A stretch of 56,652 bases of DNA, the filler included, from Jimgerdemannia flammicorona (lineage: Eukaryota), in NCBI GenBank assembly GCA_003990765.1. It is 2 parts of 2 records of this genome, joined end to end, with 100 filler letters (N's around TTAATTAATTAA, not from the genome) between each part and the next. Parts side by side here need not be neighbours in the genome. Positions count along the whole stretch, not along the records: positions 28,379 to 56,652 come from RBNJ01000575.1; 1 more part is not named here. One strand, 5' to 3'. Numbering within the stretch: position 1 is the stretch's first letter; every line of letters begins with the position of its first letter. The notes under the pieces were generated by a model. It made no database searches. It was given only the letters and a program-made list of their open reading frames with translations, and was not told the DNA's origin. The position numbers and the translations under genes were made by a program. This document shows, in pieces, positions 9,831 through 55,804 of this stretch.

Positions 9831-9842
9831 ACATTTACATTC

Positions 9843-12800: not shown

Positions 12801-13478
12801 GGGGCGATGGAGTGGATCTGGACAGGTCTGCTTGAGAGGTGGCCGGTTGGTTGGCAGAAGGCTGGGTTTGGAGAAGAATGGGAGTGGGGTCAGGTTTGGG
12901 GCTGGGGGACCTCGCTACTCAAGATTGCCCCACCCAAGTTCTGGGTGATATGGTGGCGATTTCTGTGGAGGAACATCATGCTGGGGTACAGGATGGGGTG
13001 GATGGTAGAAGAAGGTGTAAGGGAATGTGAGTGGTGTTGTGAGCTGGATGGGGGAGTAGTGCAGACTCCAGAGCATGTTCTGACAGCCTGTCCAGGAGTT
13101 GAAGGATTTTGGCAGACATTGGAAGGTTATTGGGGGGAGGAGAGTGAGCAGGCAGGGGGCCCCACTTGTCGGGTGATCAAGCGTCGCCTGGTGGGAGAAA
13201 TTGGGGACATCTGGGGAGGCCTAGGTCAGATTATCGGCATCTGGGTACTGATGGTGGTACACTGGTAATGGGTGTTCGAGAGGGATCCCTGGATGGGAAT
13301 TGGAGAATTGGTGGAGCAGTGGAAGGGGTTACTCTTGGAAGTGGTACAAGGGTGGTGGTATCAGGGAAAGAGGCACCAGTTGGGGGCCATGAAGAAGGTG
13401 TTAGACATTGTTCAGAGAAGTCGGGAACACCTTGTACTTGGTGAGAAGGGGGTGAGGTGGAAAGAAGGAGTGGGCTGA
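9843..13478 (+). pseudogene. LINE copy B ORF2 (APE-RT-zinc finger) with many premature stops
   Basis: Starts at ATG 9843 (…SLNVNG). ORF pieces 10359-13478 all lie in one frame and carry endonuclease, RT and zinc-finger motifs. Confidence 0.9.
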
Positions 13479-15759
13479 ATGGCCCTTCTTTGTATTTTTA
13501 TAAATAGTTGTGGGTTGGGTTCATTGTTGTTTTAAAAGTAATCGTAGAGATACATGGATAGTGTTCTCTTTCTAGACTAGTGGAATAAAGGAGTCCAAGC
13601 AACTATAAAAAAAAAAAAAAAAAAAAAAACTACCCTGACTACAAGGGTCACCCCTATAAGAATTCAAGACAAGATGGAAATGCATCCTCTCACATTCTAT
13701 GGATATACTACTGAAGAGTCAATCCTGATCTTCATTGAAGATTTTGAACAATTCACCACTATATGAGTCCTTGATGTGGATGCACAATTGGTCCTTCTAT
13801 CAGTCAGCCTCAGAGGACCTGCTAGAGATAAGTTCAATGCAGCCACTATTGCCAATAATGGTGCAGCCAAACTTGCCAACATAATGGCCTTCCTCAGAAC
13901 AATATATTATACTGAAGATATTAAGCAAGCTCTCAAGGATCAACTTAATATAATTTGCCAGAGACTTAGTGAAGATCCCAACTCATTCTATACCCAAATC
14001 TGCAACCAGATTGTCTTTGCTGGATATGATGACTGCCTTAAGGAACAAATAGTGGATTCAATCTTCCTCAAAGGAGTTCACCCTGAAATTGCCCTAGAAA
14101 TCTGATCTATCCCAGCTGCACTGACCCTTGATCAGAAAGTGGTCTTTACACAGAGATATTGGACTGCCAGACACTCTGCTGAACACTCAATGGAGAAAAT
14201 AACTGACATCAAGATAGAGCCATCAAAACCAACTAGTATCATACCTGCTACAGTTGTAAACAGATAACCAACCCCACCTATCCCAAGACAGCCAAAGCTG
14301 ACCCAGTGGAGGAACTCACCAAGCAGTTCACCAAGATGACTGCACACCTTAGTAATATTGTTAGAGAAGTCCAAAGTGCCAACAGAAGACCAGTGCAGAG
14401 ATTTGCAGCTGCTACAGAAGAATGTAATATTATATGCTTCAGATGTTAAGAAGAAGGCCACTATGTAAAGAATTGCATGACCAAAACAAGACATAAAGCC
14501 CAATCAAGCAATACTAGTAGAACCAGAGAACAAACCAATGCAGTAGTTATCAAGGAGATTGGTGATACTGATGATGAAGAATACTATAAGGAGCTCAAAT
14601 TCTACCCTGCTACTGAAGGTATCAGAACCCAGTCAAAGCCCTATGATAAGAAGAGTAACAGCAAGCCAGTTGGAAGACCAAAGAAGACCCCAGCTGTCAC
14701 TACTCAAAGCAAGACCCAACCCGAGGAGACAGATCAGGACATGGAGTTAGATGAAGCTGCTCACCAAATCATTGAAGGCATTACTCCAGTCTCAGGAGAA
14801 AGCAAAAGCAAGAAGGAACAGAAGCTGCGCAAGACTAAGATCCACCAGTATGATATCTACAAAGACCTCAAGGAATAGAAGGTCAATGCTACCTTTAGAC
14901 AGCTAGCTGAAGTCCCTGCCTTCAGACAGAGTTGAGAGTAGGACTTGCAACTACCACCAAGAATCAAGAGTACAAGATTGTAGAAGCTCACAATACACAG
15001 GAAGAATCTGAGAACTCAGGTAAAGAATCTAAAGACCAGTATAAGATATCAGCTTATACCCTATGTCAGATTGAAGACTGTATCTTTGATACCATCATTG
15101 ATACTGGTGCTGAAGGATGCCTCATGAGCAAGAAGGCAATTGACTATCTAGGCTAGGACATTGAAGAGTCCATCAAGATGGTCTATGTTACAGCAGATGG
15201 TATATGAGCTACCCCCCTTGGCAAAATCCAAGAAGTCCCCATTAAGATAAGAGGAGCTACTATCTCAGTAGATGTGATTGTTATAAGTGCCACCAACTAT
15301 GACATCCTCATTAGCAACTAATGTCTTCATAAGGCCAAGGCCATCATTGACCTCAATGCTCAGAAGATGCAGATCAACTACAGAGGAAGAAAGGTATAAG
15401 TCTCTATCAATGTCCACAAAGGAGTTCTACCAGACATGGAGGAAGAAGATGAAGAGGTCATAGAGGTCTTCATGTACTCAGTGAACAAGAATAAGAACAA
15501 GACACCCAAGCTCACAGATGAGCATTAGTACAACAAGATTATCGATGGCTGTACCCCTCAAGGAAGATGCCCCCATGGTTCTAGGATGTACTGTACTGAA
15601 TACCTGAATGACTGCTGGTCCTGTATCAGTGAAGTCAGGAAAATCTACCAACAGAAATATGAGCAAGAAGCTGCTGAAGCAAAAAAGAAAGCCGAAGAAG
15701 ATGACCAGCCCCCAGAGCTTCAAGCTGACAGTGACGATGAGGAGGAACAAGAATCAGAC

Positions 15760-16179
15760 ATCACCCTCAAGGTCAAGAAGTTTCACCCTGAAGCCAAGAT
15801 CTCAGAATATAAGACTGAAGGAGCCATAGGAATGGACCTTGCCAGCATTCAAGATGCTATACTTAAACCACAGACCACCACCCTACTTGGTACTGGAATT
15901 AGAGTCCAGCTGCCAGAAAACCATGCCAGAATTATCAAGACCAGGAGCAGTTTGGCCAAAAGTGAAATCTCAGTTGAAGGAGGAGTAATTGATCCTGATT
16001 ATACTAGTAAGATCTTCCTCATAGTCAGAAATCACAACTCCACCACTGCATTCGAAGTCAAGAAATACGATAGGATTGACCAGATGCTGATCCACATAAT
16101 CAAGAAGCCCAAGATCATAGAAGCCATCAAACTCATCAAGACCAAGAGAGAAGAACAAGACTTTGGATCTACTGGAAGA
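15760..16179 (+). pseudogene. dut: dUTPase domain between protease and RT in Gypsy element 1
   Basis: Trimeric dUTPase motifs GMDL, RSSLA, GVIDPDY, RIDQ and RE…FGSTG within ORF 15586-16302. Confidence 0.93.
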
Positions 16180-19100
16180 GGAGCCTATGCTGCCAATAAG
16201 ATTACTGAACTTGAGTACAAGAAAGACAAGGACCAGAACAAGTACACATATACTAGAGAAAACTTTCCCCTAGAAGAACAACTTCTCAAGGTCCTGCATT
16301 AGAATGAAGGAGTACTTGCTACAGACTTCAGTGATATCCACAATCAAGAACTCAAGTACTACCATGAAGTTGATACTGGCAATACCAAGCCCATCTACCA
16401 GAAAGCCAGACCTATACCACCTGCCTACAGAGAATGGCTGCAAGCAGAACTCAAGGAAATGGAAGAAGCCAGAGTCATCAAGCAAGCTATCAGCCCCTGG
16501 GCCTCACCCATTGTTCTTGCCCTGAAGAAAGGAAGCAAGCCTGGAGAGTTTGTACCAAGACTCTGTATTGACTACAGGAAGCTCAATGCCATCACCAAGA
16601 AGGATAGGCAGCCCTTGCTGAATATTCAAGAAATCCTTACCACTCTTGAGAGCAAAGCCAAATACTACACCACCTTGGATCTATTCTCAGGCTTCTATCA
16701 GATTGGTCTCACTCAAGACACCAGTGAGAAATCAGCCTTTATCACACCTGATGCCACCTATATCTATCTGTGAATGCCATTTGGAATGTGCAATGCCCCA
16801 GCAAGTTTTCAGCGAATGATGAACAGAGTATTCAGCAATGAGATTGGAAAATGGCTCTTTGTCTATGTTGATGATGTGATCACCTTCAGCAATATTGTAT
16901 GGGAATATATCAATCACATACAGCTAGCTCTCAAGAAGCTCAAGGAGTATGGCCTTTATATCAAGCCTAAGAAATACAAGTTTGCAGCTCAAGAAATCAC
17001 CTACCTAGGACACCTCATCAATCAGACCAGAATCCACATAGATCTCATGAAGATTGAGGCTGTTGCAGCCTACCTAAGACCCAGAACAACCACAGAAGTC
17101 CATGCCTTTCTTGGACTGGCCAGCTACTACAGAAGGTTCATCAAAGGATACTCTAACATTGCAGCACCTATCTACAAGCTACTGAAGAAGGAGACCAAAT
17201 TCAAATGGACCAAGGAGTACCAAGAAACCTTCAATGAACTCAAGACCAGGTTGACCTAAGCACCTATCCTCAGAAGACCAGATTGGAACCTAGAATTCAT
17301 CCTGCAGACAGATATAAGTACTATAGGACTAGGAGCAGTCCCAGCTCAGAAGAAAGATGGATATGAATATGTCATCTCCTATCCAAGCCGAGGTATCTGT
17401 GGAGTAGAACAGAACTACAAGTCATACAAGCTCAAATGCTTAGTAGTAGTTTGGGCAGTAGATAAGTTCCACTACTACCTAGCTGGGAAATACTTCACCA
17501 TTAAAACAGACCATTCTGCTCTTGCCTGGCTATTCCACACTCTGAACCCTAAAGGAATATATGTATATCAGATGGTTTTACAGGCTGTAAGAGTATGACT
17601 GTACTGTCAAGCACCACTCAGGAAGAACCAACACCAATGCTGATACACTCTCAAGGACACCCCAAAACACCCTCATCAAGACTATTCAACATGAATAAGG
17701 AGCTATACTATGGATTAATCAGCTATCTTGGGCAGCAGAAGATGCCCAACCACCTCAAACCCTGGACAATCACTATCATCAACTAGACTTAGAAATAGTT
17801 TGAACTAGATAACACTACACTCAGAAAAGTAGGAAAGCTAGTAATATCTGAACACAAGTATCAAGTAACGAAGGTAGTACACAAGCAAGGACACCTAGGA
17901 GGAATCAACACATACAACAAGGCAAGAAGAACCATGTAGTGGCCCAAGATGAAAGAAGACCTGTGCCAATTTGTCAAAGGATGTGATAAGTGCCAAAAAC
18001 AGAAACAAGATCACTAAGACCAGGTACCTGAGTCATTAAGAATTTAGCCTATCCCCTTCCACCACATCACAATGGATATCATTGAACCACTATCAGTAAT
18101 ATTATCAGAAAACTGCTATATTATAGTTATTGTAGACCTCTTCACCAAATAGATAGAGGCAGGAGCATTACAAGAAGCCAATGCCCTCTCTATAGCTTAT
18201 TTCCTACACCAAGAAATCATCTGCCACTACAAGACACTGAAGCAAATCACAAAAGACCATGGTATGGAATTTATCAATGGATTTCATAAGATAATGTATC
18301 AGAAATACACGATTCAGTACATCAAGACCACCATGTACCACTCTCAAGGAAATGGACAGACAGAGAGAACTAATAAGACTCTCAAGAACATCCTAGTAAA
18401 GATCTCAGAGACATATGAGAATTAAGATAATTATCTCCCAACTGTCCTCTCTGTCCTATGAGACATATGGTCACAGAGCACACACTTCACTCCAAGAGAG
18501 CTACTCTTCAGAGAAGAAGATTCTGATGAAACCTCAGCCACAAATCTAGACCTAACTTGGAGATGGGTTGATGCAGAAATCTGGAGACTACACTAAATCA
18601 GAAAGAAGGCTGAAGATTATATTATTAAGTCACAAGTGCTGACAAGGAAGAATGTGGAAAAGAATCACAAGGCCCTAGAACCATCTGAATTGGAGAAAAG
18701 GTCCTACTGTATTGAAATATGGTAGAAGCCTCATAGTTGTGAAAACTGGAGCCCAAATAGGAAAGACCCTTCTATGTTCAAGATATCAAGAGAACTACCT
18801 TCTGGTTTAGAAAAATCTCAGAAACCATACTGCCTACCATGGTACATAGGAACAGACTCAAGAAGTATCATGAACCTATACAAGAGAAGCAAAATGTGAT
18901 GACCACCCACAAGGTTCTAGTCTGTGAATCATAACAGCATGTTCCATGACTAGCAGGATATCTGTCTGGACAAATCTCTAAGGGATATGGCACTGGCAAC
19001 TACTCATCCATGAGACTTTAGAAGTTAGAGGAGTTTGAACTGTCCACTGATTGGTCAAGATCAGAATCAGGCCCTTGCTCTATATAAAGGGAGCAACCCT

Positions 19101-38381: not shown

Positions 38382-39396
38382 ATGGACCTTGAGACAGGGA
38401 ACAAGATCAACACCACCGTCATTACCCTTGACGAGTTTGGCGCTGGGTATGGAACGCCGGTGACTCGCTCAAACATTGTTTCAAAATGTTGCACGGTATG
38501 TTTTGCAGACGACACTAGTTTCCGTTTGCGTTTACAAACAACTTAATGAATCCCCCTTTTTCTTTTTTTCTTTTTTTCTTTTTTTTTTTTTGCAGTATTA
38601 CATAACGTTGATATATACCACCTATGTAGCGGTGAAATTATCGGATGAATCCTACAACAACCGTCATTCTCCCGACCCAAAGAATTATCCTTCTGACCGC
38701 AACCGCGATATGCAGAGCCTTTATGTGGCACTTTTAATTGTGACAAGCACTTTCGTGCTTCTGCAAACGACACTTGGCATTGTGATTCTCGCCGGAAATC
38801 GAGATATCCTCGGAATGTATGTTTTGTACTACTCGTTGCATTTTCCCAAAGTTGAATCGCCACTAATTTACACATCTGTTTTTGATTTTAGTTTTGGTGC
38901 ATTATACAATTCTCCCTTCATGATTTGCTGTTTGCGCTTCAAGCCAGAGCACTCTGCAGATGGCGCCGATCGCCCTTTCGTGAAATCCGGCAAACTCACA
39001 CCCTCGCTACTCTCCCGCATACTCCAAGGCGTTTACGCTATCATGGCAGTCGCCATTCTGGGTAGTTTGCATTCCATATACCCGGATTCTTACGACGGTC
39101 GTACCGTTGTTGTGCCTCTGCTTGTCAAATTTGGCACAATGTTTCTGCAGGAGTATTGGGACGTTTTAGGCAGGGTAATAGAGAGAGATAAGCCCAAGCT
39201 TGTTGGGATATGCAGGAATTCTGATCGAGAGCCGACAATAGCCATCTGGTGTTACTATTGGACGACAATGGTGGTACTCGTGTTTTTCTCTGGAAGTCTG
39301 CTTGTTCTACTTAGTTGGATATTGCATGTTCTCTACAAAATAATAGAAAAACAAGGAGGCAGTATTATTTCAAATTCTCCTTTTCAATCAGCATGA
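38382..39396 (+). CDS. Uncharacterised multi-pass membrane protein, probably 3 exons
   Basis: Exons 38382-38495, 38596-38816 and 38892-39396, with GTATGT donors and TGCAG/TTTAG acceptors, in frame. Several hydrophobic segments (LYVALLIVTSTFVLL, VYAIMAVAILG, MVVLVFFSGSLLVLLSWIL). Confidence 0.7.
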
Positions 39397-40896
39397 CGTG
39401 TATATGATGTCCAATACTCTATTTTTCACAATAAAGATATATTTATATATTTGAAAGGTAGCCTTTGGCCAAAAAATATATTACAGTGAAGAGATGGATG
39501 TATTAGAGGTTGGGAAATGGACCATATAGACAGTTACCCGTTACATAGAAAACCGAGTCCTTTAATCACGTAATAATCGCATCCAATAAAACTATTTACA
39601 TGGAATTACCCCTCCAAAAATTGTTGCAATGGCTATATAACAATGTCCAGTTGTATTCCTTTTCAAATTAAAATGATTCGGACCACTTCATGGTTAATAT
39701 AGATGCGATTAACTCTGTCTACTTTGGCAGCGTGCCTGTCGATTTCCTCGACGATTTTCTACTGCCTCATGGAATCTGGGCAGCTTTCTTGTCTTTGGAA
39801 TTTCTGTCGTCCCCCGTATCCTCCCCATGCTGATGGGGGCGGAGCTGATTACAAATGAAAGGACCAAGTCAAGAATAGCGAATGTAATAGACGATGAAAG
39901 CAAAAATGGTCCCCGAGGAAATTATTAGGGACAAATTTCAGGTGGAGCAACTCAAAGCCAGTATTATACGGCAGAAGGTGGCGATGGTGTTCAAACTAAA
40001 GTTCCGATCCTATCCTGATACAGGTTGAAAGAAGTCAACCGGAATTCTGAAACCGGAAATGATGCTGATTCAGATTTGTGGTGCGCGACTTTGAGGCTTT
40101 GAGGAACGCGCACGTAATATTGTGTCCCCGCACAAAAGAATATGGAATCGTTGCAGTTCGGTTATAAATAAGTTCGGTATATGCTAAGCGTGCCTCCCCG
40201 ATCAACCAGTGAATTCCTAATATCGTATTTTGTGTATTTTCATCATTCTTGCTTCCCAAAGCAAGCACATTTCGTTCGTAATCATCCACTGAAATACCGG
40301 AACGGGCAGCTTGCGGTACCTTTGTCGTCAAGATTTTGAGGACAATAATTGAAGGGCAAATCTCAAGAAATGGTGTCAAAGGTAGATCCTCCGTCTCTAT
40401 ACCTCCTGCGACTTATTCTACCATTTGATGCCGACTTTTAAAAATCTTGTATATATATACTGAAGATATTGGACTGTCGTTTATTCAGACAAGTCACTGA
40501 GATATTTGTATGAAACCAATTTAAGCTTTAGTTTGGGATATTTTTGGACAGCTATTTTGAATGCAGAAGAGTTAAGATATTGTATAACTACGAAGAGCCT
40601 GAACATGCGGCAGCCAATCAGGGAAGAACGGATGCGAACACAAATTCATATGTTTACTTAATATAAAAGATTTCCTAAAATATACAACTCCCATATATCG
40701 AGCACATTTCCGTATGCACAACTCTCCCATCACCTTTCAACCTATGACCAACCATGCCGACCTCCTCGACCACGCTGACATCACCTGGAAAATGAGAGTG
40801 TAATTTTATAATTATGGCTGAAGAAAAGATTACTGTTTCAAAAAAAAAAAAAATCCGTAGGTGCTTTATACGTAACCCATACGTACCCAAATATGC

Positions 40897-41280
40897 TCAA
40901 GGGCAAAGAGAAGGAGCATTGGACGGACAGTAGATGGTATGCTTGGATGGAACATTAGTCATGTCCTGGTATCCCTGGTAGTCGATGCATTGAGCTGCAT
41001 CATCACAGTTGTAGCCGTTATATAGATAACAAGCTACTCCCGAAACTCGCGCCGAAAACAAGTTGGAAACGTAGGGTTCCTCGATGCTGTAACAGGTGTC
41101 GTAATTTGGGTAGTATGTTTGGCAATTTCCGGTAAAGTCTTTACCAGTACACAGTGTGTCGGTATTATATGAAGCGACTGAGACGTCAGTTTTGTTAACG
41201 TCAGTGGGAGGGGTAGTTGGGAGGACGGCGGCGGCGGCGGCGGCAGCGACGAGCATGGTCATGGCGGCAAAAATCTTCAT
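40897..41280 (-). CDS. Small secreted cysteine-rich protein (127 aa, 8 Cys), probable beta/gamma-crystallin-like fold; copy 1
   Basis: Signal peptide MKIFAAMTMLVAAAAAAA. Pattern LCTGKDFTGNC…SARV…CYLYNGYNC…GYQD resembles crystallin Greek-key motifs. Intact ORF with a TATAAAA upstream. Confidence 0.85.
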   Translation of the reverse strand: MKIFAAMTMLVAAAAAAAVLPTTPPTDVNKTDVSVASYNTDTLCTGKDFTGNCQTYYPNYDTCYSIEEPYVSNLFSARVSGVACYLYNGYNCDDAAQCIDYQGYQDMTNVPSKHTIYCPSNAPSLCP

Positions 41281-41571
41281 GGTTTTGGTTCAGTTCTGGG
41301 AGCGATAGTTGGATTTGTTATGCGATTGATCACTTGAGGTGGAGTTGAGTGAGGAAGGTGGGGGAGAATGCCGGTGGTTTTATACTCATTCATGGATTAC
41401 ATCAGGACCCCACAGAATTGGATTCGCAACCTCCTCAAAATTAGAGCGATAGTAGAATGTGAGATATTTTTAGGATTACGTCATATAGCATTTGGTTTCA
41501 GGCGGTGTGCGTATGCTTCTTTGTGTGTTCTATTTCCAGCTCTGATACATACCGGTTTGCTTGGCGTCTTA

Positions 41572-41980
41572 TGGGAATAAACTATTAGTTGGACCCCGAC
41601 ACGTCTTTTCTGTCGGACTCTGACACCGAACACCCTCCCCTCACTAGTAATAAGTCGATCGTCGAAGTTTCGGTTTGTGGGGGATTTTTATGGAATAAAC
41701 CATTGTTGGATTATGACACGTCCTTTCTGTCGGACTCTGGCACCGAATCCCCTCCCCCTTAGTTGTATGTAAATTGTCTTGTAACATCGAAAACTCGCTT
41801 TATGGGGTATAGATTATTAGTTGGATACGACACTCGGGCCCCGGCACCGGACCCCTTGTGGTATGTCGATCGTTTTGTAACATTGAAAACCCGGTTTATG
41901 GGGGGGGGGATAAACTATTAGTTAGACCCCGACACGTTTTTTCTGTCGGACTCTGTTACCGTCTTGTAATATCGAAATTA
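41572..41980. promoter_or_regulatory. Array of four ~105-120 bp degenerate repeats upstream of secreted-protein copy 1
   Basis: Units start near 41572, 41691, 41803 and 41907. Core GAATAAAC…CCGACACGTCTTTTCTGTCGGACTCTGACACCGA. The regulatory role is an inference. Confidence 0.7.
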
Positions 41981-43320
41981 GATTTTGTCTTTTACAAACG
42001 AATATCATTCATAGAAAACGATGTAATAATCTACCGTATTCTCATGTGCATAAAAGTTCCAGATGTCTCAGTTGCGAAGGAGGAAAGCAAATGTCGGAAA
42101 TGTGGAATAGTGGGACATAATGTCCAATAAGAATCAAGCGGATGTATGGGAAAGAATAACTTACCCTAACAGAGTTTCAATCGACAACCAGTATTCTCTG
42201 CGGGAGATTGTTTTTTTTTTTTTTTTTTCGTGGCGTATAAGCAAAAATAACTATGATTGATCCAATGGATATAACAGGGTGGACTGTGATTTAATAGGTA
42301 GGTAATGCCCCGAAGATGGCGAGACCCCGCATCGTTTCCCGCTTTGGTTTGTTTATATCCCACAGGGAAACGTGTTTGCATGTGACCGTCTACGGAGTAC
42401 CTGGTTATTGTAAATACGGTTTATGTTTATTTCGGAAGTATAGCGTTCATACCTTTCCCCATTAACTTACGACCGGTCCACCTGACAGTGGATCACGGAG
42501 AAAAGCAAGCCTACAATTGGCCAGTCAAAATAGCCGAAACCATAACGCCGTGTGGCGTGAACTTCCATAATAAATATTTATCTGCTTCCCGACGTTCAAT
42601 CGATCATTCCTTAAGAATATGAAAGAAAATCTGGGGGTGCAAATGAGAAAAGCATCAGTATAATTGGTTATGGAAACAATACGTATATACAAAGTAAAAG
42701 CATCATTATAATTGTTTACGGAAAAATACTTACAAAGTGGGGTTACTCGAGGGGGTTGTTTTTTTTTTTTTTTTTTTTTTTCATTAAAAAAAGTGTATCT
42801 TGTTGCTTACATCAACAGGTGGATCGCGCGGATGGGCGAACCGACTTGTAGATTATAAGGCAAAGTGTAGGTGTCATGGTGATTATCGAATTCAAGTGAT
42901 CATGTTTCATTCATGCCCGCCCCCGATTTCCCGGTGAGCGAAGCGCCCACTTAGTGAACATGTTCATTGTTTTCACGGCACTACCGCATCACGATTTAAC
43001 TCGATTTAGTTGTACTTATACATCACTTCGATCTGTTTAGTTGACAAAGTAATTGAAAACATATGGTAGATCCATCCGGGGAGTACATTGTAAATGTGAA
43101 GGGTGATCGCTAGCGCCGCAGATCGTCGTGTTTAGGTTTTGGTAAACTGAGGAATGATCAGTTTTACACCTTGAAGTCAGCAGCTCAAAATGTAAACGTC
43201 ATCATTACGTCAGCAAACGTCAATCAATCCATATGAACTTACAAATCTGTACTCTTGCTAGGCGAAGTACGATATCAATCGACGAAAAATCCGTAGCTTT
43301 TGGCGTAAAAAACCTTCAAT

Positions 43321-43534
43321 TCAGCCATAGCGATCGTAGCATTTGTCGTGGGCCCTGCAGGCTTCATCACCGGCGTCAATGGCCGTAGTAGATCGAGGGC
43401 TTGGAATGCTTGCTCCGCATCCTTGATATCACTGGATAGATCGTTGAGTGGGACCCTCGGGAATGAACAACACCTGTGAATATAACCAGAAGGAACAGGA
43501 GAGCGAAGAAAGCTGAGAACTTGGTGGAGATCAT
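43321..43534 (-). pseudogene. Secreted phospholipase A2 pseudogene, copy 1
   Basis: Signal peptide MISTKFSAFFALLFLLVIFTG, then across frameshifts VPLNDLSSDIKDAEQAFQA, SIYYG and IDAGDEACRAHDKCYDRYG*, which holds the sPLA2 His-Asp motif. Confidence 0.8.
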
Positions 43535-44461
43535 GTTTTGGGAGTATTTCAAATCAAGAGAGTGTGAATGCCATTGAATCGTGGGCGTTCGGTGAGGAAA
43601 TAAAACCTGTATTACTAGGGGCGCATCACTCCTCAAGCAAGCACATTTCGCCCGCCACCGTCCACTGAGACCCCATAACACCAGCCTCCATATTAGCACT
43701 GACACAAATATAACAAATTTTTGGCTTTCATCACTTGCGTTATTCGTCCGCAACTTTCTCGTATGACCCGCACGCCAACATTCCTGCACCTCGAAAATTG
43801 AATTTCACCTACGCCAGAAATTTGAACGATCAAATCTTGATCCTCCACATTGGCATGGGCGTCATACTCCTGAAAGGTGTCACCTTTGTCGTAAAGTTCT
43901 TTGAGGGCAATAATAGAAGGCAAACCTCAAAAAATGGCTTAAAACGAGATCCTTTATCTCTATATCTCACAGTTCTACTATTCGGTGCTGACTTCTTCGA
44001 AATTTTTTTGCCCTGAAGTTATTGAACTGTCATTTATTCAGACAAGTTGCTGGGATATTTATATGAAACTACTTTAAGCTATATTTTGGATAAATATTGA
44101 ATGCAGAAGAGTTACGATATCGCATAACGTATTTACCAGGAAGGAGGGGTAGGACGAATACGAACACATTTCCTAAAATATAATTACAGCTTCCAGAGAT
44201 CAGGTACACTTTCATATGCAAACTACCCACCAAGCCTCTTACACAACTCTCCCATCAATCTTCAGCCTATGACCAACCATGCTGACCTCCTCGATCATGT
44301 CGACCTCCCCGAACACGCTGACATCACCTGGAACATGAATCCGAATGAGAGATGAGAGCGGGTATAAGTTTATAATTATGGCTGATGAAAAGATCACTGT
44401 TACCGAACAAAAACACCCCCCCGTAGACGTTTTAGACATAACCCATACGTACCAAATATGC

Positions 44462-44845
44462 TCAAGGGCAAAGAGAAGGAGCATTGGACGGACAGTAGAT
44501 GGTATGCTTGGATGGAACATTAGTCATGTCGCGGTATCCCTGGTAGTCGATGCATTGAGCTGCACCATCACAGTTGTAGCCGTTATATAGATAACAAGCT
44601 ACTCCCGAAACTCGCGCCGAAAACAAGTTGGAAATGTACGGTTCCACGATGCTGTAACAGGTGTCGTAATTTGGGTAGTATGTTTGGCAATTTCCGGTAA
44701 AGTCTTTACCAGTACACAGTGTGTCGGTATTATATGAAGCGACTGAGACGTCAGTTTTGTTAACGTCAGTGGGAGGGGCAGTTGGGAGGACGGCGGCGGC
44801 GGCGGCAGCAGCGACGAGCATGGTCATGGCGGCAAAGATCTTCAT
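44462..44845 (-). CDS. Small secreted cysteine-rich protein (127 aa), copy 2
   Basis: Five amino-acid differences from copy 1; intact ORF. Confidence 0.85.
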   Translation of the reverse strand: MKIFAAMTMLVAAAAAAAVLPTAPPTDVNKTDVSVASYNTDTLCTGKDFTGNCQTYYPNYDTCYSIVEPYISNLFSARVSGVACYLYNGYNCDGAAQCIDYQGYRDMTNVPSKHTIYCPSNAPSLCP

Positions 44846-45209
44846 GGTTTTGGGTCAGTTTCTGGGATCGAGAGTTGGATTTTTTATGCGATTGATCGCT
44901 TGAGATGGAGTTGAGTGAGGAAGGTGAAGTTGAATGAGGAAGGTTGAGATAAGTGAGGAAGTTGGGCGGGAGCTGCCGGTGGTTTTTATACTCAATCATG
45001 GATTACATCAAGGCTGCACAGAGTTGGATTCGCAACCAGGACAATGGAAGGGTGTGAGATATTTTTAGGATTACATTATACAGCATTTTTTTTCATCTAT
45101 TTTCACGGTGGTATGCGTATATACGCTTCTTTGCGTGTTCTATTTCTGGCTCTGATTCCTATCCGGATTGCGTTGGCGTCTTTCCCTCAGTTTATAGGGT
45201 ATTTTTTTA

Positions 45210-45700
45210 GGGAATAAACTATTAATTGGACCCGACACGTCTTTTCTGTCGGACTCTGACACCGAACCCCTTTCCAGTGGTCTTGTAACATCGAAATCTC
45301 GGTTTGTGTGGTATTTTTAATTGAATAAACTTGGTTGGATCGATACGTCTTTTCTGTCGGACTCTGACACCGAACGCCCTCCCCTCTCTAATGATAAGTC
45401 GATCGTCGAAGCTTCGGTTTGTGGGGTATTTTTAGGGAATAAACCATTGGTTGGATCATGACACGTCCTTTCTGTCGGACTCTGACACCGAATCCCATCC
45501 TGTCTTAGTTGTATGTCGATTGTCATGTAACATCGAAAACTCGCATTATGGGGTATAATTATTAGTTAGACCCCGACACTCGGACCCCGACACCGGGCTC
45601 TTGTAGTATGTCGATCGTTTTGTAGCATTGAAAACCCGGTTTATGGGGGACGCGTTCTTTCTGTCGGACTCTGTCACCGTCTTGTAATAACGAAATTAAA
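45210..45700. promoter_or_regulatory. Array of five degenerate repeats upstream of secreted-protein copy 2
   Basis: Units near 45210, 45321, 45435, 45550 and 45650 (partial), with the same core as 41572-41980. Confidence 0.7.
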
Positions 45701-46933
45701 TTTTGCCTTTTGCAAACGAATATCATTTTAAAGCCGAGGCCAAACTCTTCATAGAAAACGATGTAATAATCTACGGTACCCCTTTTTCATGTGCATAAAA
45801 GTTACAGATGTCTCAGTTGCGAAGGAGGAACGCAAATGTCTGAAATGTGTAACAGTGGGTCATAATGTCCGATAAGAATCATGCGGATGTATGGGAAAGA
45901 ATAACTATCCTAACAGAGTTTCAATCGACAAGCAGTATTCTCTGCGGGAGATTGTTTTTCGTGGCGAATATAAGTAAAACAAGCAAGGGATATAACAGGG
46001 TGAAGGTTTTGTTTTGCCGTGAATAAGTTTGTAAAGGACTGTAATTTAATTAGTAGGTAATGCCCCTTGGATGGCGAGACCCCGCATCGCCTATCCCGCT
46101 TTGGTTTGTTTATAACCTACAGGGGAACGTGTTTGCATGTGACCGTCTATGGCTGTAACATCACAGTTTTCCCCAATAACCTAATTACGACCTGCCCACT
46201 AGTCTCAACCTGGCAGTGGGTCATGGTGAAAAGCAAGCCTACAATTGGCCAGTTAAAATATCAGAAACCATAACGCCGAGTGGCGTGCACCGCCATAAAC
46301 ACGTCACAATTCGGTCAATCGATCACTCCATAAGTAACAATGAATATAAAAAGAAAAGCTGGGGGTGCAAATGAGTAATAAAACAATCATTATAATTGGT
46401 TGTGGAAACAATACTTAACTTGTGGGGTTTTTTTTAAAAAAAAATTATTAAAAAAAAGTGTGTCTTGCTTACACACATCAACAGGTGGATCGCGCGGATG
46501 GGCGAACCGACTTGCAGATTATAAGGCAAAGCGTAGGTGTCATGGTGATTATCGAATTCAAAGTGATCATGTTTCATTTCTCATGCCGCTGATTTGCCGG
46601 TGAGCGAAACGCCCATGTTCATTGTTTTCACGGCACTACCGCATCATGATTTCACTCGATTCGGTTGTACTTACATATATTTCGCTTCGATCAGTTTAGC
46701 TGACAACGTAATTTGAAACAATATGGTAGATCCATCCAGAGAGTACATGGAGTGATCGCTAGCGTCGTGTTTAGGTTTAGGTAAACTGAAGTCAAGAAAG
46801 GAATGATCAGCTATACACCTTGGGGTCAGCAGCTCAAAATGTAAACGTAATCATTACGTCATCAAACGTCAATTAATCTTTATGAATACTCACAAAACTG
46901 TACTTTTGCCGTAGCTTTTGGCGTAAAAAACCT

Positions 46934-47170
46934 TCAATTCAACTGGCTCAATTTGGCATATTGTCCATAGTCACACCTGCAGTTAAACTAGCCATAGCGA
47001 TCGTAGCACTTGCCGTGGGCTTCATCAACGGCGTCAATGGCAGGGGATTCCCAGACGCGGAGTAAAATGGACCACAACAGTTTCCGTAACAGATCGAAGA
47101 TGCCGCGAAGTCTTGGATGGCATGCTCCGTATCCTTGACATCACTAGTTTCGGAAGGAGAGCGAAGAAAG
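46934..47170 (-). pseudogene. Secreted phospholipase A2 pseudogene, copy 2
   Basis: SDVKDTEHAIQDFAASSICYGNCCGPFYS, a frameshift, then PAIDAVDEAHGKCYDRYG*FNCRCDYGQYAKLSQLN*. The 5' end is removed at the MITE junction. Confidence 0.8.
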
Positions 47171-47284
47171 TGGATCCAATTTGAATTGAATCCAATTCGA
47201 ATCGAAAAATCCTCAATTTGATACAATTCGAATCAACCCCAATTTAATTTGATTCAAATTGATTCAATTCATTTGGAAGCACTA
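47171..47284. mobile_element. One end of the hAT-type MITE family seen at 54202
   Basis: GAATTGAATC/GATTC subrepeats ending in CATTTGGAAGCACTA, matching the right TIR at 54585. Confidence 0.75.
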
Positions 47285-47380
47285 ATTATACTTATATATT
47301 ATAAATTCTCTATAGCCTTATTGAAGTAAAAAAAAAAAATGAATAAATTTATAATTTATAAGCTTTTTAAACATACTCCC

Positions 47381-48939
47381 TGTTGTAGAATACTTGGGGA
47401 AAGACAGGTGGAGAGAAGCATTGTTTACTAGCAATTCACGCTTTTACGCGTCAAGATTGATGACATTTACATGATGACGTCGTTAGGATGCGCCATAGCT
47501 ATATAACTAAGATATTCAATGCTCCTTTCTCCACTACCTTACTGGTCACAATGGTTTGGTAGGCAACCTTCCAAGTCCACTTTCCACAATTATTACTCCC
47601 TCTATCTCAGGTTGGTTTGCTGTACCTGTTGTAGGGCAGTGGAAGGGAGGCAATGGTGATGAGTTGCTCCTTTATCAGTATCAGATTGGTGTCTTCTCCA
47701 CTTTTTTGCAGTTTCTGATACCTTCAGCTGTGTCTGAAGTGCATCCATTTTGGTGTGGTGCCTTCTTTCTTTTGCTGTCACCAACAAGGTGCTGTCTCAG
47801 TATGTCATGGGCTCTATAGAGAGCCAGCTGACCTTGGGTATTAAGTGCTCAGTATAGGTTACCTGTAGGTCCTCAGTATCTGTGGTGGGGCTTTCTGGCT
47901 TTGGTGAGCTTCTTGGCAAGCATAGTTCTGGCATAGGTGACTGTTTTTTGGGTATTGTCAGGATGGAAGGAGAGATGACCATTATAGATAGGAGGAAGGG
48001 TGATAATGGTGAACCAGTAGGGTACCAGACTGGGAGCAGTCATTGGGGCTGAGGTGAGTACTGCTTCAGTGGGGTCTTTTGATTGATGTAGAGTGGTTAG
48101 GTGGTAGGTATCACTCTTGGCTTCTTTTGGTAATTTGGTAGGTTGGATCCCAGTCATTAAGAGGAGTCAGGGGGCCTGAAGCTATCTATTTCAGATATCT
48201 TGGCTGTACTCAACTAAAACTAGAAGCTGACATAGTAACATGATCAAGGCTTACAGGCTTGAGTAGTGGGATATTGGGGGTCTCCTTCCACCTTATATGT
48301 AAGTTCTTTACTCACCTCAACTGGAAGAACCAGGTCCTACCTACTGTAATGTACTTTGATGAGGATTTTTCTTTATCTATCATTTTCTTTAGAGTGGCAG
48401 AGACTATTCTATTTGGCTCAAGCATGACCTTGTATATACATTGGGGTCTCAGGTATGTACTTTCAGTCATTGGTATATGGCTGAGTTCTCTCTGATAGTA
48501 GGAAGAGTATAGTGTGTAGAATGAGATGTGAACAAATATAGATCCTGCTGCATCTGATATGTATAGTTGAGCTGCTGGACAATAGCTAGCCTAGATTAAT
48601 GGGGAGACAGTGCTTGATGGGTGGTGGGGGAGGGTTTTGGCCTATATAGTCTAGGTTCCCTTCTAATAAAAATCTATAGAATATTAAGTCTGTTAAAAAA
48701 TATATATATATATATATATAATTAAGATTTTTCAACACTTCCACTCAATGAGATATATATGAAAATAAAAGAACATAATATGTAAGAATTAAGCTACTGG
48801 AATGTAATGCTGAAATACTATCTATATACTAAAAAATATCTGAATTCTCTGCTTATAAGCCAGAAAATAGGTCAAGAATATAGTAAAAGATCATCTGTAG
48901 CTAAATAAAACTAGTAATATTAAAGAGACTTATTAGTCA
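47381..48939 (-). mobile_element. Copia-type 3' LTR (47381-48737, interrupted by the SINE-like element), PPT and short internal remnant
   Basis: TGTTG…CAACA termini. Similar to the LTRs at 29679/32262 (AGAAGCATT…TCAAGATTGAT). Followed by CTTCCACTCAA, a minus-strand PPT. Confidence 0.7.
47521..48700 (+). mobile_element. ~1.2 kb non-coding poly(A) retroelement (SINE-like), copy 2, with ~20-bp TSD
   Basis: 5' GCTCCTTTCTC; 3' AATAAA (48665) and an A-tail. Flanks are CTATATAACTAAGATATTCAA (47499-47519) and TATATAATTAAGATTTTTCAA (~48715-48735). Confidence 0.82.
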
Positions 48940-49238
48940 GCTCCTTTCTCTACTACCTTACTGGTTCCAATGTTTGGTAGACAACCTTCTGAGTCCCCTC
49001 TTATTATTACTTCCTCTATCTCAGATTGGTTTACTATATCTATAAAAGCATGATGAGAGGGAGGCAATAGTGTTAAGTTGTCTCTTTATTAGTATCAGAT
49101 CAGTGTCTTCTATACTTTTTTATAGTTTCTGGTGCCTTCAGCTGTATCTGGAGTATATTTGTTTTGATGTGGTGTCTTCTTTCTTTTGTTGTTATCAATG
49201 AGATATTATCTGATATATTATGAGCTATATATAGAGTT

Positions 49239-52200
49239 TACCACACCTTTCACTAGTAACATTCTGGTGACACAAGACTTAGATAACACTTTTTACAATT
49301 TTTTTGATGAAAGAAGACTATTAATATAGACAGCAATAAATATACTAGTGAGCATGTCAGTCAGGAGAGCAGTAGTATCTTTGACTAGCAGTATGTAGTG
49401 AGGAGGCAGAGAGATGGTTTGGAGATACCAGAGCCTTCTATAGCTGGCTGCAGTGTTGGTGGTAGAGGGAGGGGTGGATTGAGACAAGAAGAGAAGAGGA
49501 CAATCTTTGCTGATAAGGTCAAGATGGAGAGAATGGTATCTGGTCTGGATAGTTGGTTGGGCCTGGAGAAGATGTCAATAACTTCAGTTGGAGGACAGAG
49601 AGGGGTCTCATGGGAGGTTCAGACAGTAGGGGGAGGGGAAGAGTAGGGGCCAGAGATATGACTACTGATAGAGCTGTAACTGATAATCTGAAAAAAAATC
49701 CAGATGTGACAGTTGTTAGTGGATCAGGACAGAGAGAGGGTATGAGGCCCAGGGATCTGATAGATGGCATGACTGGCATGGTGTTGGCACTATTACTCAA
49801 AAAGTCAAGATTAGAATTTATTATCACATTATACTTCTGAGGCTTAGCAGTAACTGTAAGGATAATTTTAGAGTTAGTGATATAGAAGGCAAAGGGGGTG
49901 GCTTCAGTAAAGTTCTTAAAGAGGAAAGAAGGAGTTGTGGTTAGATTTGAAGAAGAGGTGTCAATGTTAGAGGCTATGAAGAAGGGAGTAATAGTGGGCA
50001 GAGTAGTGGTTTCTATGGTCAGATGTATATACTGAGATCCCTGAGTAGTATAGTTGATGGTATTGGATCTTCCTATGGTATCAAAAGAGAGGGCCAGAGA
50101 GCTGATTGTAGAGGTGGTCAAAGAGTATGAGGAGATTGTAGATGTAGGGTTCAGAGTCTGGGAGGGTACTGAACTCTAGACAGGAGATATCAACATCAGG
50201 GTGAGGCTGACTGAAAGAAAGAATATAGGGAAGACAAGGGACTGGCTGGCAACTCTTAAGTGGGACCTGGTTGAATGTAAGGTATTGTGGGTAAAAGAGA
50301 TGCCAGAGGAAGAAAAGGACTTGCTAGAGGCTCTCAAGGATCTGATAGGAGCAGTAGAGAGGAGAAGATTGGCTTAAAAGGAGTATGAAACCAAGACAGT
50401 AGTGGAGATTATAGATGGAAAGAGGATTAAGATGGACAAAGTGGCCTGGGAGAAGGCACAGGGGAGGCAAATCCAGAAAGAGCTGTTGGAGAAATTGGGA
50501 GAGAGTATAGTAGACAGTAGGGTAGGTGAAGGTAGTGCTAGATTGAGAGAGAGTGTCTGGGCTGGAGAGTACAGGCAAGCTGAGGGTGTGGTATAAGGTG
50601 GATCAAGCAAGGAGGGATAGGGTGGTGTGGAGGAGGATGCTGAAATGAGAGAGGGAGTATATCCTCAGTTTGATATCTTAGGTGGGGTCAGTGGTGAGGA
50701 GGAACTCCTAAATATACTAGAAGAGAAGTGGGATGAGTTAGGGAGGAGGAGAACTTTGGTAAACCCTGTGGTGGAGGTTGAAAGAGTCACCCAGAGTATT
50801 GCCAAGGCAGTGGATGAAGAGAAGTAGCTGTAGAAGACTCTGGAGGAGGTGGCAGCTAAGAAGCTGGGGGGAGAGAACTTCTGGGTTCTAAGTAATAAGC
50901 ACTGGAAGGAAATTCTCTATAGTGAGGAGGTGCCAAAAAAGATTAGAAATGAGATCCTAGTAGTACTCTTGGAGTTAGAGGAGTATCAGATTGATGATCA
51001 GAGAGAGGAGACCCTTTGAGAGATTGTGAATGACTAGACAGCATACTTGTAGGGATCAAGAAAGAGGTTGGAGAAGTGGAGATTGGTATGCATGGATTAT
51101 TGGGCAGAAATGGAGATGGTGGATGAGGTAGAGTATCAGGAAATCTTGGAAGCACTGAATGCTCAGGCTGTAGTGGAGGAGGAGTTGGAGATAGAGTAGC
51201 ACTTGGAGCTGGCTAGTGATGAGATGAGTATAGAGTACTAGAATGGATTCTCAATATCAAATATTATTCAATCTGAATAGTATAACTAGAATCTTTTCTT
51301 TGAATATGAATGGGTTGAGGGGCATGATATGGCAAAGAAATATCTTTAGCTGATTGAAGAGGCTAGATATAGATCTCTTCTTACTGCAGGATATGCAGTA
51401 TGAGGTAGATGTGAATTTACAGAACTGGACTAGAAAATGGGGTGAGGCAGCTGTGTGGACTGGGTGGGTGGGTATTCTGGTTTGAAAGGGAATGGGGGAC
51501 ATTGGGGATATTGGACATTGGGGGAGTAGATTGGTATGGGGAGTATAGAAGAGGCCTGGGTGGAACTCTTTGACTGTTGGGTCATATTATTATCTAGCTG
51601 AGAGGGGAGAATGTATAAATTGGATCAGAGACTTGAGAGAGGCTGGTATTATGGATAAGGCAGAGATTGATTGCCTGGGGGGTGATTTCAATATAGTATA
51701 TAATAATGGAGCAGACAGGACTAATGGTGGGAGAGGAATGAGAGATAGAAGTGGTGGATTGGATGATTGGATGGAGATTGAGAGATTGAGCTTCTTAGTT
51801 GACTCAGGGTGACAGTTTTGAGTAGATTGCTGAATTTATACTCACTTGGTGGCAGGGCTGGGCTCCAGGATCAACTGGGTATTGACAGTAGAGTGCTGGA
51901 GAGTGAATGTCTAGGATATACTGGAGGTGGTTTGGTGCCCATAGTCAGATCACTAGGGTCTGATAGGAAGTGGGAGATTTGGGAGAAGTGGGGATAGGCC
52001 TGAACATTGGCAATTGAATTCTTCTTTGTTAGAGGATGATTCCTTATAGATAGACTGGGAGGTGGAAGTTATTACAAAGATTAATAGGTGGCAGAAGCAG
52101 GAATTGGTGATTGGGGATCACTGGTAATAGCTGAAATCGAGTGCTCAGAGGTACTGGAGAGAGGCAAGGAAAGGAAGGAGTGTTCAGCAGTAGCAGCAAG

Positions 52201-55200
52201 TATTATGGGCTTCATGGAGATTGGCAGCACTTCTGGGGAGATGGGCAGAATTACTAGAGGATTGAGGGGTAGCTGATTGGCAAATTCTACAGATATAAAA
52301 AGAAGTAGATAAGCTAAAGAAAGTGTTACAAATAGAGAAAGAGGTTCAGCTGAAGAGAATAGTGGTGAGGTTGTGGTGGCAAGAGTTGGAGGAGAGAGAG
52401 AGACTTATTAGATTTCTTTCATGGTTGCTCTAAGCTCAGAGAACCAGATAACAGTGGAATGGTATTTTGGATGAGAATAGAGAGATGGTGGCAGGGACTC
52501 CTAAGATTTTGGAATTGCTGAGAACTTACTAGAGGAATTTATAGAGTGAAGAAGAAGGGGGTGAGAATGTCCTGAACATTGAATGGCAGTTGGAGAATTG
52601 GTATCTGGACCCAGCTCTGGGCCTGGGGATACTGGGAGACCCAGTGTAGGGGGAGGAAGTATGTAAGGTCTTGGCTTTGACAAGTAAGGGGACAGCTCTA
52701 GGAGAGGATGGACTTTCCTGGGATTTTTGGAAGAATGACAGTATTATTGGAGGAGATGATAGTAATGAGTAATGAGGTCCTTTGATCTGCAACTTGGATT
52801 GGGGGCCAGCACCTGGGGCTGGTCTCCTTACTCTATAAAGATAAGGAGAGAAGAGAGGATTAGAAGAACTGGTGGCCCATCATGCTCCTTAATATAGACT
52901 GCAAGCTGGTGATGAAGATCTTGGTAACTAAGCTGCAGGAGATCACTCAGTAGATACTAGGAGTAGAGCAGAGGGGATTTGTTAGTGGTCAGTTGATCTG
53001 AGATGAAACTGCCTGGGTCTATGGAGTGATTGAAGGGGCTCAGACAGCTGGAGTTGATGGCTGGTTAGTGTTTCTGAATCAGGAGAAGGCATACAACAAA
53101 GTGAGGAGGATTTGGCTGGAAGAAGTACTGAAATATGTATGAGTTCCCTCAGAGTTCAGAAGGTCACTAATTAGTCTATTGGAAAACAGTCATACAGTAT
53201 TAGTGGTAAATAAGCACAGAGGTGTGACTTTTCTGCTAGATTATGAGGTACCACAAGGGGATCCTTTGTAATCCATTCTATATATCCTTTCCTTAGAGCC
53301 CCTATTGGACAGGATCTGGTATTGAATTGGGGGTTTGAACATTTTGGAAGGTGGGGGCTTTTGCAGATGATATGATGGTTGGACTGAATTTATTAGAGGA
53401 TGTGAAGGAATTAAAAAGAACTGTGGAATAATATGAGAGGAGCTCAGATACTAAACTCAACTGGCACAAATGTGAGACTCTGGTGCTAGATGGCAGAATA
53501 GTTGGCAGTGATGTAATTGGAACAGTGGTTCTAGCAGAAGAACTGTTCTGGTACTTAGAGATCTACTTTTTGGTATATGGGTCCCTTCTGCCCTATGTAT
53601 AGTGGAAATAGCAGCTACTAGTATGAAGGAATATTCTCTTGAGGTAGAGTGGTCAGTATATATCCTTGGTAAGAAGGGTGATGGTACTGAATGTATATTG
53701 GCTACCAAAGCTATGGTATATGGAGTATCATCTAGACTTCCCAGCATGGGTGATCAGATGACTTCTGTAGATGACAAGATTATAGATTTGGGCCAGATAG
53801 TATAGTCAGATAGGCTGGGAGGTTCTGACTCTGCCTATTGACAGAGGCAGCCTGGACTTAGTGGACTTTACCAAGTACCTCCATTGTCTGAGAGTTTGGT
53901 GGCTGAAGAGGGCAAGTGAGTTGAGGGACCAGGAGTGGGTACCACTTATGCAGAGGGTGTTGGAAGTCTGGTATTCCCCTCATAGAGCAACTGGTGACCT
54001 GCTTGCAATAGTGGTCATAGACAGGAGTAAGAGGATGTGTTATAAAGGCTTTTGGTAGGGAGTGGTGGATGGTGTAAGGAGAATTGGACTTTGGTAGTGG
54101 GGTAATGAGGGGAGGGAGAACTAGAGACCACAGATGTGGAAATGGGATTAGCTACTACTGGGAGATATATTGGTGGAGGATTTTCAGGTTGATGATGGAA
54201 TTAGTGCTCCCAACGAATTGAATCAAATCAAATTTGGCCCAAACTTGATTCAATTCGATCAAATCAAGGGTCCAATTCAATTCGATTTGAACCTTAATTT
54301 TCAAAATGTAATAACTCGACGAAAACTCATCCAAATTTAACATATTTTAGCTTGTTAGATTCACCGTATTAATGTGATTCTAACAAGCTAAAGTATGTTA
54401 TATTTGGATGAGTTTACGCTGAGTTATTGCATTTTGAAAATTAGAGTTCGAATCAGACCCTCAATTCGATTCAACTTTTGATTTGATTCAAATTGATTCA
54501 AATTGAAAAATCCCCAATTCGATTCGACTCGTTTAACCCTCAATTCGATTCGATTCGAATTGATTCGACTCATTTGGGAGCACTAGATAGAATAGAATGT
54601 ATGTGGGGGCTTAGGAGAGACATATGGCCTGAAGCATAGTAAAGAGTGGGGATTGGGGAGGAGTGAGACTGAAATGGTGTTTGGCTTTGGAGCAAGAGGG
54701 TGATGCAGTGACTTCCTCCCAAGTTCTGGATAGTATGGTGGAGATTTTTAAGACAGAATGTAATGCTGAACTATCAGTCAGAGTACTTAATAACAGATGG
54801 GACATTTGAGTATAAGAAATACATAGACATTGGCCAGGAGGGGAGAGTGGTACAAATACCCAAACATTGGTTAGAGAAGTGTGAAGTTTTGGGAAGATTT
54901 TTGGTACAGTATTACTAGTAGACTGGGATTGCAGCCTCTGGTGGAGGAGGAAGGAGAGAGATGGGAGGACCTTCAGCATAGGTTGGTGGGCAGGGTTTGG
55001 AATAAATAGTTGACCTTGGGATAGGCCCTGGCAATTTGGGTGGGGCTGGCCAGTCATTGGCTTCATGTCTTTGAAGAGTTGCAGTTAGAGCTAGGGTAGC
55101 ATATTGGGAATGGTTATTACTTGACATTTTGAATGGTTGGTAGAAAGGGTGGGGATTGGGTAGGGGGGGCCATCAGAATTTAGTGAAATATATTTATAAG

Positions 55201-55373
55201 AAGAGTAAAGAGAGGGTTTGAGTGGTGAGTAGTTGGGTTGTCCCTCAGCAGAGAGAGATGAAGAGTAGGGAAAGAGATCCAAGGGATATTGGCTTACATA
55301 TACATTATTATTTATGGATTGAGTGGTAATAAATAGAAGTTTGAGTAACTATAAAAAAAAAAAAAAAAAAAAA
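49239..55373 (+). mobile_element. Full-length but heavily decayed L1/Tx1-like LINE copy C with 14-bp TSD
   Basis: TSD CTATATATAGAGTT (49225-49238) / CTACATATAGAGTT (55374-55387). Eroded ORF1. ORF2 from ~51290 (FSLNMNGLRG, GGDFN, GEDG, LNQEKAY, PQGDPL, FADD). AATAAA, AACTAT and 21 A. Confidence 0.92.
54202..54585. mobile_element. hAT-type MITE (384 bp, fold-back) inserted in LINE C
   Basis: TIRs TAGTGCTCCCAA…TTGGGAGCACTA. 8-bp TSD GATGGAAT/GATAGAAT. Long central palindrome near 54322-54415. Confidence 0.88.
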
Positions 55374-55804
55374 CTACATATAGAGTTAGCCAACTTTAGA
55401 TATCAAGTATCAGTATAGATTATCTGCAGATCTCTAGTATCTGTGGTTGGGCCCTTTGAGCTTTAGTGAGCTTCCTAGTAAGTATGGTTCTGATATAGGT
55501 AACTACTTTTAGAGTGAAGTCAGGATGGGAGAGGAGATAGCTATTATAGATAGGAGAAAGAGTGATTATAGTAGACCAGTAGGGTACCAGACTGGGAGTA
55601 GTCATTGGGGCTGGGGCAGATATTGTATCAGTGGGGCCTTCTAATTGATGTGGAGTAGTTGAGTAGTAGGTATCACTCTTGGCTGCTTTTGGTGATTTGT
55701 GGAATTGGGCTCTGGTTATTGAGAATGGTCAGGGGGTCTGAGACTACTCAGATTAGATGTCTTAGCTACACTTAACTAGAAGCTGACATAGCAATATAAT
55801 TGAG

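Follow-up and report, generated by a model that had tools for sequence, protein, structure and literature searches.

The 56,652-nucleotide window analyzed here, a stretch of the Jimgerdemannia flammicorona assembly (231 Mb, 35,354 contigs), contains two broken copies of a phospholipase A2 (PLA2) gene. J. flammicorona is an ectomycorrhizal member of Endogonales. We conclude with high confidence that both copies are pseudogenes of one gene, which likely encoded a small secreted Ca2+-dependent PLA2 (sPLA2), was duplicated together with a neighboring gene, and was then broken. By sequence, the remnants are of the calcium-loop sPLA2 type, of the bacterial or plant-group-XI-like kind, and do not belong to group XIV. 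Coordinates are positions in the whole window. The features of the two copies are:

43321..43534, minus strand: PLA2 pseudogene copy 1 (motif reading, copy alignment, PF00068 E=0.002)
43460..43534, minus strand: putative signal peptide of copy 1 (hydropathy and start context, pattern fit)
46934..47170, minus strand: PLA2 pseudogene copy 2 (motif reading, copy alignment, contig of public run X1)
47172..47300, no strand: high-copy dispersed repeat occupying the expected start of copy 2
46515..47243, plus strand: inferred spliced non-coding transcript, antisense to copy 2 (634-base X1 contig)

Remnants of the two PLA2 copies

Copy 1 begins with an ATG at 43534 and a hydrophobic N-terminus, and its frame is open for 52 codons, to just past the YG of the calcium loop. 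The signal-like N-terminus has a lysine at position 5 and a hydropathy peak of 3.35 over 11 residues. The 51 N-terminal codons contain no cysteine and need no intron, and the start context resembles that of the neighboring gene for a 127-residue protein. YG is all that remains of the calcium loop; 43 bases are deleted after it, and the frame then reaches a stop at 43378. The catalytic-helix motif DEACRAHDKCYDRYG at 43368-43324, which includes the DxxCxxHDxC active-site helix (43368-43339), is in a different frame from the N-terminus. A stop and a 49-base deletion lie immediately 3' of it. Compared with copy 2, copy 1 lacks stretches of 11, 43 and 49 bases.

Copy 2 retains the calcium loop YGNCCGPFYS at 47088-47059 (YGxxCG at 47088-47071, loop feature at 47088-47070), the IDAVD motif, and FNCRCD at 46987-46970. 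The Asp of its CxCD motif (46981-46970) is kept at 46972, and the corresponding column, D45, is nearly invariant among relatives; from known sPLA2 enzymes, this residue is presumed to be the second catalytic Asp. A frameshift at 47046-47045 separates the calcium loop from PAIDAVD. The catalytic helix is broken, with the nine bases for CRA deleted and HG (47014) in the place of the HD of copy 1. Stops are located at 46990 and 46936, and the CD motif is followed by 11 codons, compared to 29-80 residues in 16/16 intact relatives checked. Sixteen bases of the signal-peptide region are left, and the start is replaced by the high-copy repeat. A sequence-only reading of this DNA had placed the motifs of both copies at these positions, and had described copy 2 as lacking CRA and most of the signal peptide, in agreement with the alignment. 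Its account of the copy 2 motifs also stands, but it mentioned neither the frameshift nor the HG, and it gave the stop at 46990 as an 'x'.

The pattern DxxCxxHDxCY has one match in the 231-Mb genome, which is copy 1, and the pattern YGN[YWFC]CGP has one match, which is copy 2; the reversed controls gave none. The two genome-unique motifs sit at corresponding places of the tandem duplication, in the right order and spacing. Within the window, the two PLA2 places are the only ones with a positive score (21.7 and 16.3 bits) for a profile built from 17 relatives, and the best score in the reversed window is -4.4. When the copies were read separately, with X at the breaks, two profiles of relatives gave 27.9 and 29.3 bits for copy 1 and 30.9 and 37.4 bits for copy 2. 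Shuffled sequences, 500 per test (445-491 reported), reached 11.6 and 4.9 bits at best. All 39 of the 39 PDB sequences matched by a 21-residue piece of copy 1 (E up to 10, best 0.037) are PLA2.

Over 137 aligned columns, interrupted by four large gaps, the two PLA2 copies agree at 89.8%. Three spacers of the duplication are 87.7-93.3% alike, whereas the neighboring open reading frame is 97.7% alike and has no gaps. The PLA2 copies thus decay like spacer DNA. In the stretch from the signal region to the calcium loop, read in candidate ancestral frames, the silent changes were 0/5 versus 1/5 of the changed codons. The stretches of 43 and 49 bases deleted from copy 1 contain the copy 2 frameshift and stop, and both tails are incomplete; therefore, the copies are not fully complementary. 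Neither copy has a single open frame with all motifs and the C-terminal helices. The earlier proposal of a hidden enzyme, rebuilt as a whole protein of ~100 residues by merging complementary copies, is not supported, as the lesions overlap, the frameshift and stop positions are intact in neither copy, and the copy 2 tail is short. Nor was an intact paralogue found in the host genome by DNA, protein, family and pattern searches. The searches with DNA, P0001, P0030, PF00068 and PF09056, with one or two candidates scored in each, returned these copies or nothing, and no third copy.

A contig of the public run X1 matches 46694-47243 with 0 differing letters and 0 gaps and repeats the copy 2 lesions, which are therefore not assembly errors; the run was labeled RNA by guess and possibly comes from the same individual as the assembly. 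The 634-base X1 contig over copy 2 has a GT..AG skip at 46600-46694, and its longest ATG frame spans 34 codons. Since the GT..AG skip sits on the plus strand, the transcript appears to run antisense to copy 2, with its strand read from the intron ends alone. Unit 1 of the duplication differs from unit 2 at the acceptor matching this skip. Contigs of three public runs are absent over copy 1, which reflects a lack of cover and not silence, and their depths do not rank genes.

Each copy retains parts that are absent from the other, and the lesions of copy 1 are known from the assembly alone, as would suit a functional enzyme hidden behind assembly errors, with one copy intact in the organism, or restored by complementation. 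The X1 contig repeats the copy 2 lesions, the 43- and 49-base deletions of copy 1 cover two of them, the divergence equals that of spacer DNA, and the transcript over copy 2 is apparently antisense, which makes such an enzyme very improbable. Chance resemblance, or contamination of the assembly by bacterial DNA, could be argued from the motifs, which are short and rich in cysteine, from the single-piece E-values, which are all weak, and from chance matches of a copy 2 piece to proteins of the epidermal growth factor (EGF) kind. Chance is opposed by two independent motifs, each genome-unique, in the right order and spacing. Contamination is opposed by the contig itself, where retroelement-like frames and a high-copy genomic repeat accompany a gene with an intron-like joint. 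The profile scores, shuffles and genome-unique motifs refute both for practical purposes, and the probability that we leave to them is negligible.

The copy 2 helix piece gave no candidate in a protein search. HMMER against 1.84 billion representatives returned three matches to it, two EGF-repeat proteins and one long repeat protein without a PLA2 family, which we rejected as chance. A tblastn search of phages with P0001 gave no match.

Enzyme class and relatives

The pieces of the remnants match PF00068 (E=0.002) and, weakly, PF08398 (E=0.076, 13.7 bits of 23.9). The group XIV family PF09056 matches none of the pieces (E threshold of 5), and a genome-wide search with it, at an E threshold of 0.1 and with two candidates scored, was also negative. 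On plasmids, the relatives are 'phospholipase A2 family proteins' of bacteria. Among 37 proteins, the closest to copy 2 are P0030 (24/38 residues identical), P0043 (24/41) and P0042 (21/38). P0042 and P0043 adjoin DUF2281, AraC and Rhs genes, so the group formed by the three proteins is likely bacterial. The model of the P0042 domain has a predicted local distance difference test score of 84.8. Its best Foldseek match is rice PLA2 (E=0.031), and VIA-align superimposes it on rice PLA2 2wg7 with a Z-score of 9.9 and a root mean square deviation of 2.0 over 84 aligned residues, with the next row at Z 6.6. The family match, the missing PF09056 match, the PDB matches, the relatives and the fold of a relative all agree with the initial call of a calcium-loop sPLA2 outside group XIV. 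The closest relatives are metagenome proteins, and not of the Firmicute or parvoviral type that had been suggested.

The bacterial calcium-loop PLA2 proteins (PF00068-like; Methylobacterium, Bacillus, Brochothrix and Staphylococcus; P0030, P0042 and P0043) have YGNxCGP, PAIDAVD, DxxCxxHDxCY and CxCD in common with the remnants, in the same order and at similar spacing. They differ at both ends. P0030 and P0042 start with an MxLPGFTAEASL leader, whereas copy 1 has a eukaryote-style signal-like N-terminus, and the bacterial relatives have a 29-80-residue tail after CD, whereas the broken fungal copies lack a full tail. P0030 and L019:352-855 share the MxLPGFTAEASL leader and a Cys-rich tail, possibly an undescribed bacterial export or processing tag.

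Plant group XI sPLA2, in the accessible part of PMC6635587, has a YGxxCG loop, a motif of the DxCCxxHDxC type and 12 cysteines, and mostly His, Asn or Ser in the position of the second catalytic Asp. The calcium loop and the type of active-site motif are common to the remnants and to group XI, whose rice member (PDB 2WG7) is the best fold match of the relative's model. In contrast to the 12 cysteines of group XI, the PLA2 frames of the remnants contain at most six, with the C-terminus lost, and the Asp of CxCD is kept. As the 12-Cys pattern is not visible and the CxCD Asp is kept, the remnants are not filed in group XI.

Group XIV sPLA2, as defined in the consulted part of PMC11525133, comprises Tuber borchii TbSP1, the Streptomyces violaceoruber enzyme and Verticillium VlsPLA2 (PF09056). 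It also provides a secreted His-Asp PLA2 in a plant-associated fungus, yet belongs to a different family. TbSP1 is linked to mycorrhiza in the portion of bioRxiv 10.1101/2022.03.19.484916 that was available. The Tox-PLA2 domain of Rhs polymorphic toxins is linked to the 1kp4 (group XIV) fold in the corresponding part of PMC3482391. An Rhs protein on contig L014 (1175-2317) ends in a calcium-loop PLA2 domain related to the remnants, which is likely a polymorphic-toxin tip, unlike the group XIV-type Tox-PLA2. The fungal gene differs from Rhs Tox-PLA2 in that it stands alone, and in that the published Tox-PLA2 has the group XIV fold.

Origin and possible role

On sequence grounds, we are evenly divided on whether a soil bacterium was the source of the catalytic domain, to which a fungal signal peptide was then joined. 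A bacterial source is favored by the best relatives, which are likely bacterial. A word-limited search gave 26 relatives among 212 candidates; none has a eukaryotic name, seven bear a bacterial name, a bacterial species label or 'hypothetical', and most are without a name. For the closest relative, the listed Atlas clusters are of bacteria or viruses. The screen of >60 fungal genomes in bioRxiv 10.1101/2022.03.19.484916, which included Mucoromycota and addressed the Tuber/Streptomyces kind, reports, in its accessible part, secreted PLA2 from Ascomycota alone. With this screen, the earlier remark that the type is unusual in fungi is reasonable, although our own sampling of fungi was weak.

Several observations weigh against our interpretation. 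The profile used to collect the relatives contained the fungal pieces, which favors look-alikes. Every piece falls short of the Pfam cut-off, the best being a 33-residue piece with 19 bits of 32.1 for PF00068, a cut-off below which several intact relatives score as well. The calcium-loop piece alone matched no Pfam family and gave no plasmid match. The fold was obtained from the bacterial relative P0042, with a Foldseek E-value of 0.031 at best, so that of the fungal protein is inferred. The fragmented assembly (35,354 contigs) may miss an intact copy, and an intron inside both motifs would escape the patterns. Because copy 1 is deleted at the positions of the copy 2 frameshift and stop, the gene may have been either alive or already dead at the time of the duplication. 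The base composition of the PLA2 gene is fungal. The search for relatives covered 212 candidates, with most matches unnamed. A tree of 24 rows and 71 columns, which had no eukaryotic rows and from which copy 1 (too short), fragments and near-duplicates of the 37 relatives were left out, places copy 2 on a long branch (1.82) in an unresolved node and gives no support for a horizontal origin.

Without any transfer, a plant-like calcium-loop sPLA2 could have been inherited from old eukaryotes, kept in some early-diverging fungi, lost in most, and dead here. The rice enzyme is the best solved fold for the closest relatives, the N-terminus is eukaryote-style, the start context and G+C content (49-51%) are the same as in the fungal neighbor gene, and fungi were thinly sampled by the search of 212 candidates, all of which fit such a history. 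It is opposed by the lack of eukaryotic names among the 26 relatives, by the bacterial or viral Atlas clusters, by the 51 N-terminal codons of copy 1, which need no intron, and by the published screen, which in the part seen has no secreted PLA2 in Mucoromycota, though it was aimed at the group XIV kind. We regard inheritance as a reasonable but less favored possibility. Alternatively, the remnants might be the relic of a PLA2-bearing virus, either an RNA virus or one resembling parvoviruses, that became integrated into the fungal genome. In favor of this, the first-ranked Atlas cluster of the closest relative is viral (Kitrinoviricota, 0.88), a related PLA2 domain occurs in three viral contigs, and PF08398 matches weakly (E=0.076). 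However, a comparison of viral contig L026 with the window gave nothing better than E=0.42, and in the tree L026 forms a separate long branch. The N-terminus of the fungal copy is signal-like, its surroundings showed no remnant of a capsid or a polymerase, and a looser helix pattern matches none of the viral contigs. A viral relic is already disfavored by these results, and we consider it improbable. The viral contigs L026-L028 are near-identical. In each, a long frame has the calcium-loop PLA2 domain close to its beginning and, judged by eye, follows polymerase-like frames.

By analogy with established sPLA2 chemistry, the ancestral enzyme would have been exported via the secretory pathway and stabilized by disulfides. 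Ca2+ would have been bound by the YGxxCG loop together with the Asp that follows the catalytic His, the CxCD Asp would have been the partner of the catalytic His, and the sn-2 ester of membrane phospholipids would have been cut outside the cell. The gene and its intact neighbor were copied in a 3.6-kb tandem duplication, and the PLA2 copies have since been broken by deletions, a frameshift, a stop and the insertion of a repeat. The likeliest role of the enzyme would be the attack on, or remodeling of, outside membranes, either microbial or of the plant root. This role is hinted at by the signal-like N-terminus, the neighboring secreted protein and the related domain at an Rhs tip.

We speculate that Endogonales took a plant-like calcium-loop PLA2 from soil bacteria, added a fungal signal peptide, and paired it with the small secreted protein as a two-gene cassette of exported products that serves to attack membranes or colonize roots. 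This would be the second time that mycorrhizal fungi acquired a secreted PLA2, separately from the group XIV enzyme of truffles, and the gene would still be intact in sister species; as a whole, we hold this scenario to be doubtful. If the assignment is true, fungi would possess a second class of secreted PLA2, a calcium-loop enzyme of Mucoromycota. If the gene is bacterial in origin, it would represent a convergent gain in what we take to be a root symbiont. The dead, unannotated gene is a fossil and a pointer to where intact Endogonales orthologues may be sought, and the locus shows one member of a duplicated gene pair decaying while its neighbor is retained. The secreted PLA2 described from fungi is that of group XIV of Ascomycota, according to the accessible parts of bioRxiv 10.1101/2022.03.19.484916 and PMC11525133. 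The literature covered, which is partial and excludes most subscription journals, contains no report of a calcium-loop sPLA2 in Mucoromycota, and is thus weak evidence of novelty. The available text of PMC10629195 places J. flammicorona in Mucoromycotina and names no secreted PLA2. The word 'phospholipase' is absent from the main text of PMC9391592, and three PLA2 terms were unmatched in its 11 supplementary files.

The duplicated locus and surrounding DNA

The window consists of eukaryotic DNA rich in repeats. The region at 40.3-47.2 kb is a tandem duplication with a unit of ~3.6 kb. Each unit carries, on the minus strand, a PLA2 remnant followed ~2 kb downstream by the gene for the 127-residue Cys-rich protein. 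The features of the duplication are:

40318..43600, no strand: tandem duplication unit 1 (ends approximate)
43882..47170, no strand: tandem duplication unit 2 (ends approximate)
40897..41280, minus strand: intact gene for a 127-residue Cys-rich, likely secreted protein, neighbor in unit 1
44462..44845, minus strand: intact gene for a 127-residue Cys-rich, likely secreted protein, neighbor in unit 2

The 127-residue protein has three paralogues with identities of 100, 96 and 57%, including G000:C18491:2717-3091, and belongs to no Pfam family. Among Atlas entries, it resembles small Ascomycota proteins (0.92), which have no Pfam family in common. The gene is covered by many X1 contigs, and a joint with intron-like ends, from 44325 to 44451, lies just downstream of the unit 2 gene. 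The public protein P0004 (106 residues) shares the N-terminus of the 127-residue protein and follows a different gene model after residue 34. Contig C18491 (3,867 bases), which holds the third paralogue, gave no PLA2 match; it turns into repeats and ends before the expected PLA2 place.

The repeat at 47172-47300 has 921 candidates in the genome, and all 40 of the 40 scored match; it is likely a transposon end or a miniature inverted-repeat transposable element. This high-copy repeat, of ~110 bases, is also present at 54200-54585, where copies near 54300-54500 flank an 81-base inverted repeat. A degenerate array of ~86-base repeats is located upstream of the gene for the 127-residue secreted protein (41553-41971 and 45189-45652), and matches to it in a DNA search were limited to the two duplication units. 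Both units contain a CxxCxxxGHN knuckle-like relic on the plus strand (~42060-42165 and 45805-45905), without a Pfam match at E 0.01; we take this knuckle to be typical of transposase ends. DNA similar to the relic region is also found upstream of the third paralogue of the neighbor. A 228-residue hydrophobic frame at 38710-39396 on the plus strand has no match in Pfam, NCBIfam or PHROG. Several decayed retroelement-like copies, resembling long interspersed nuclear elements and long terminal repeat elements, occupy 357-13268, 14477-17259 and 47500-55750. The frame at 15586-16302 adjoins reverse-transcriptase frames and, judged by eye, is presumably dUTPase-like.

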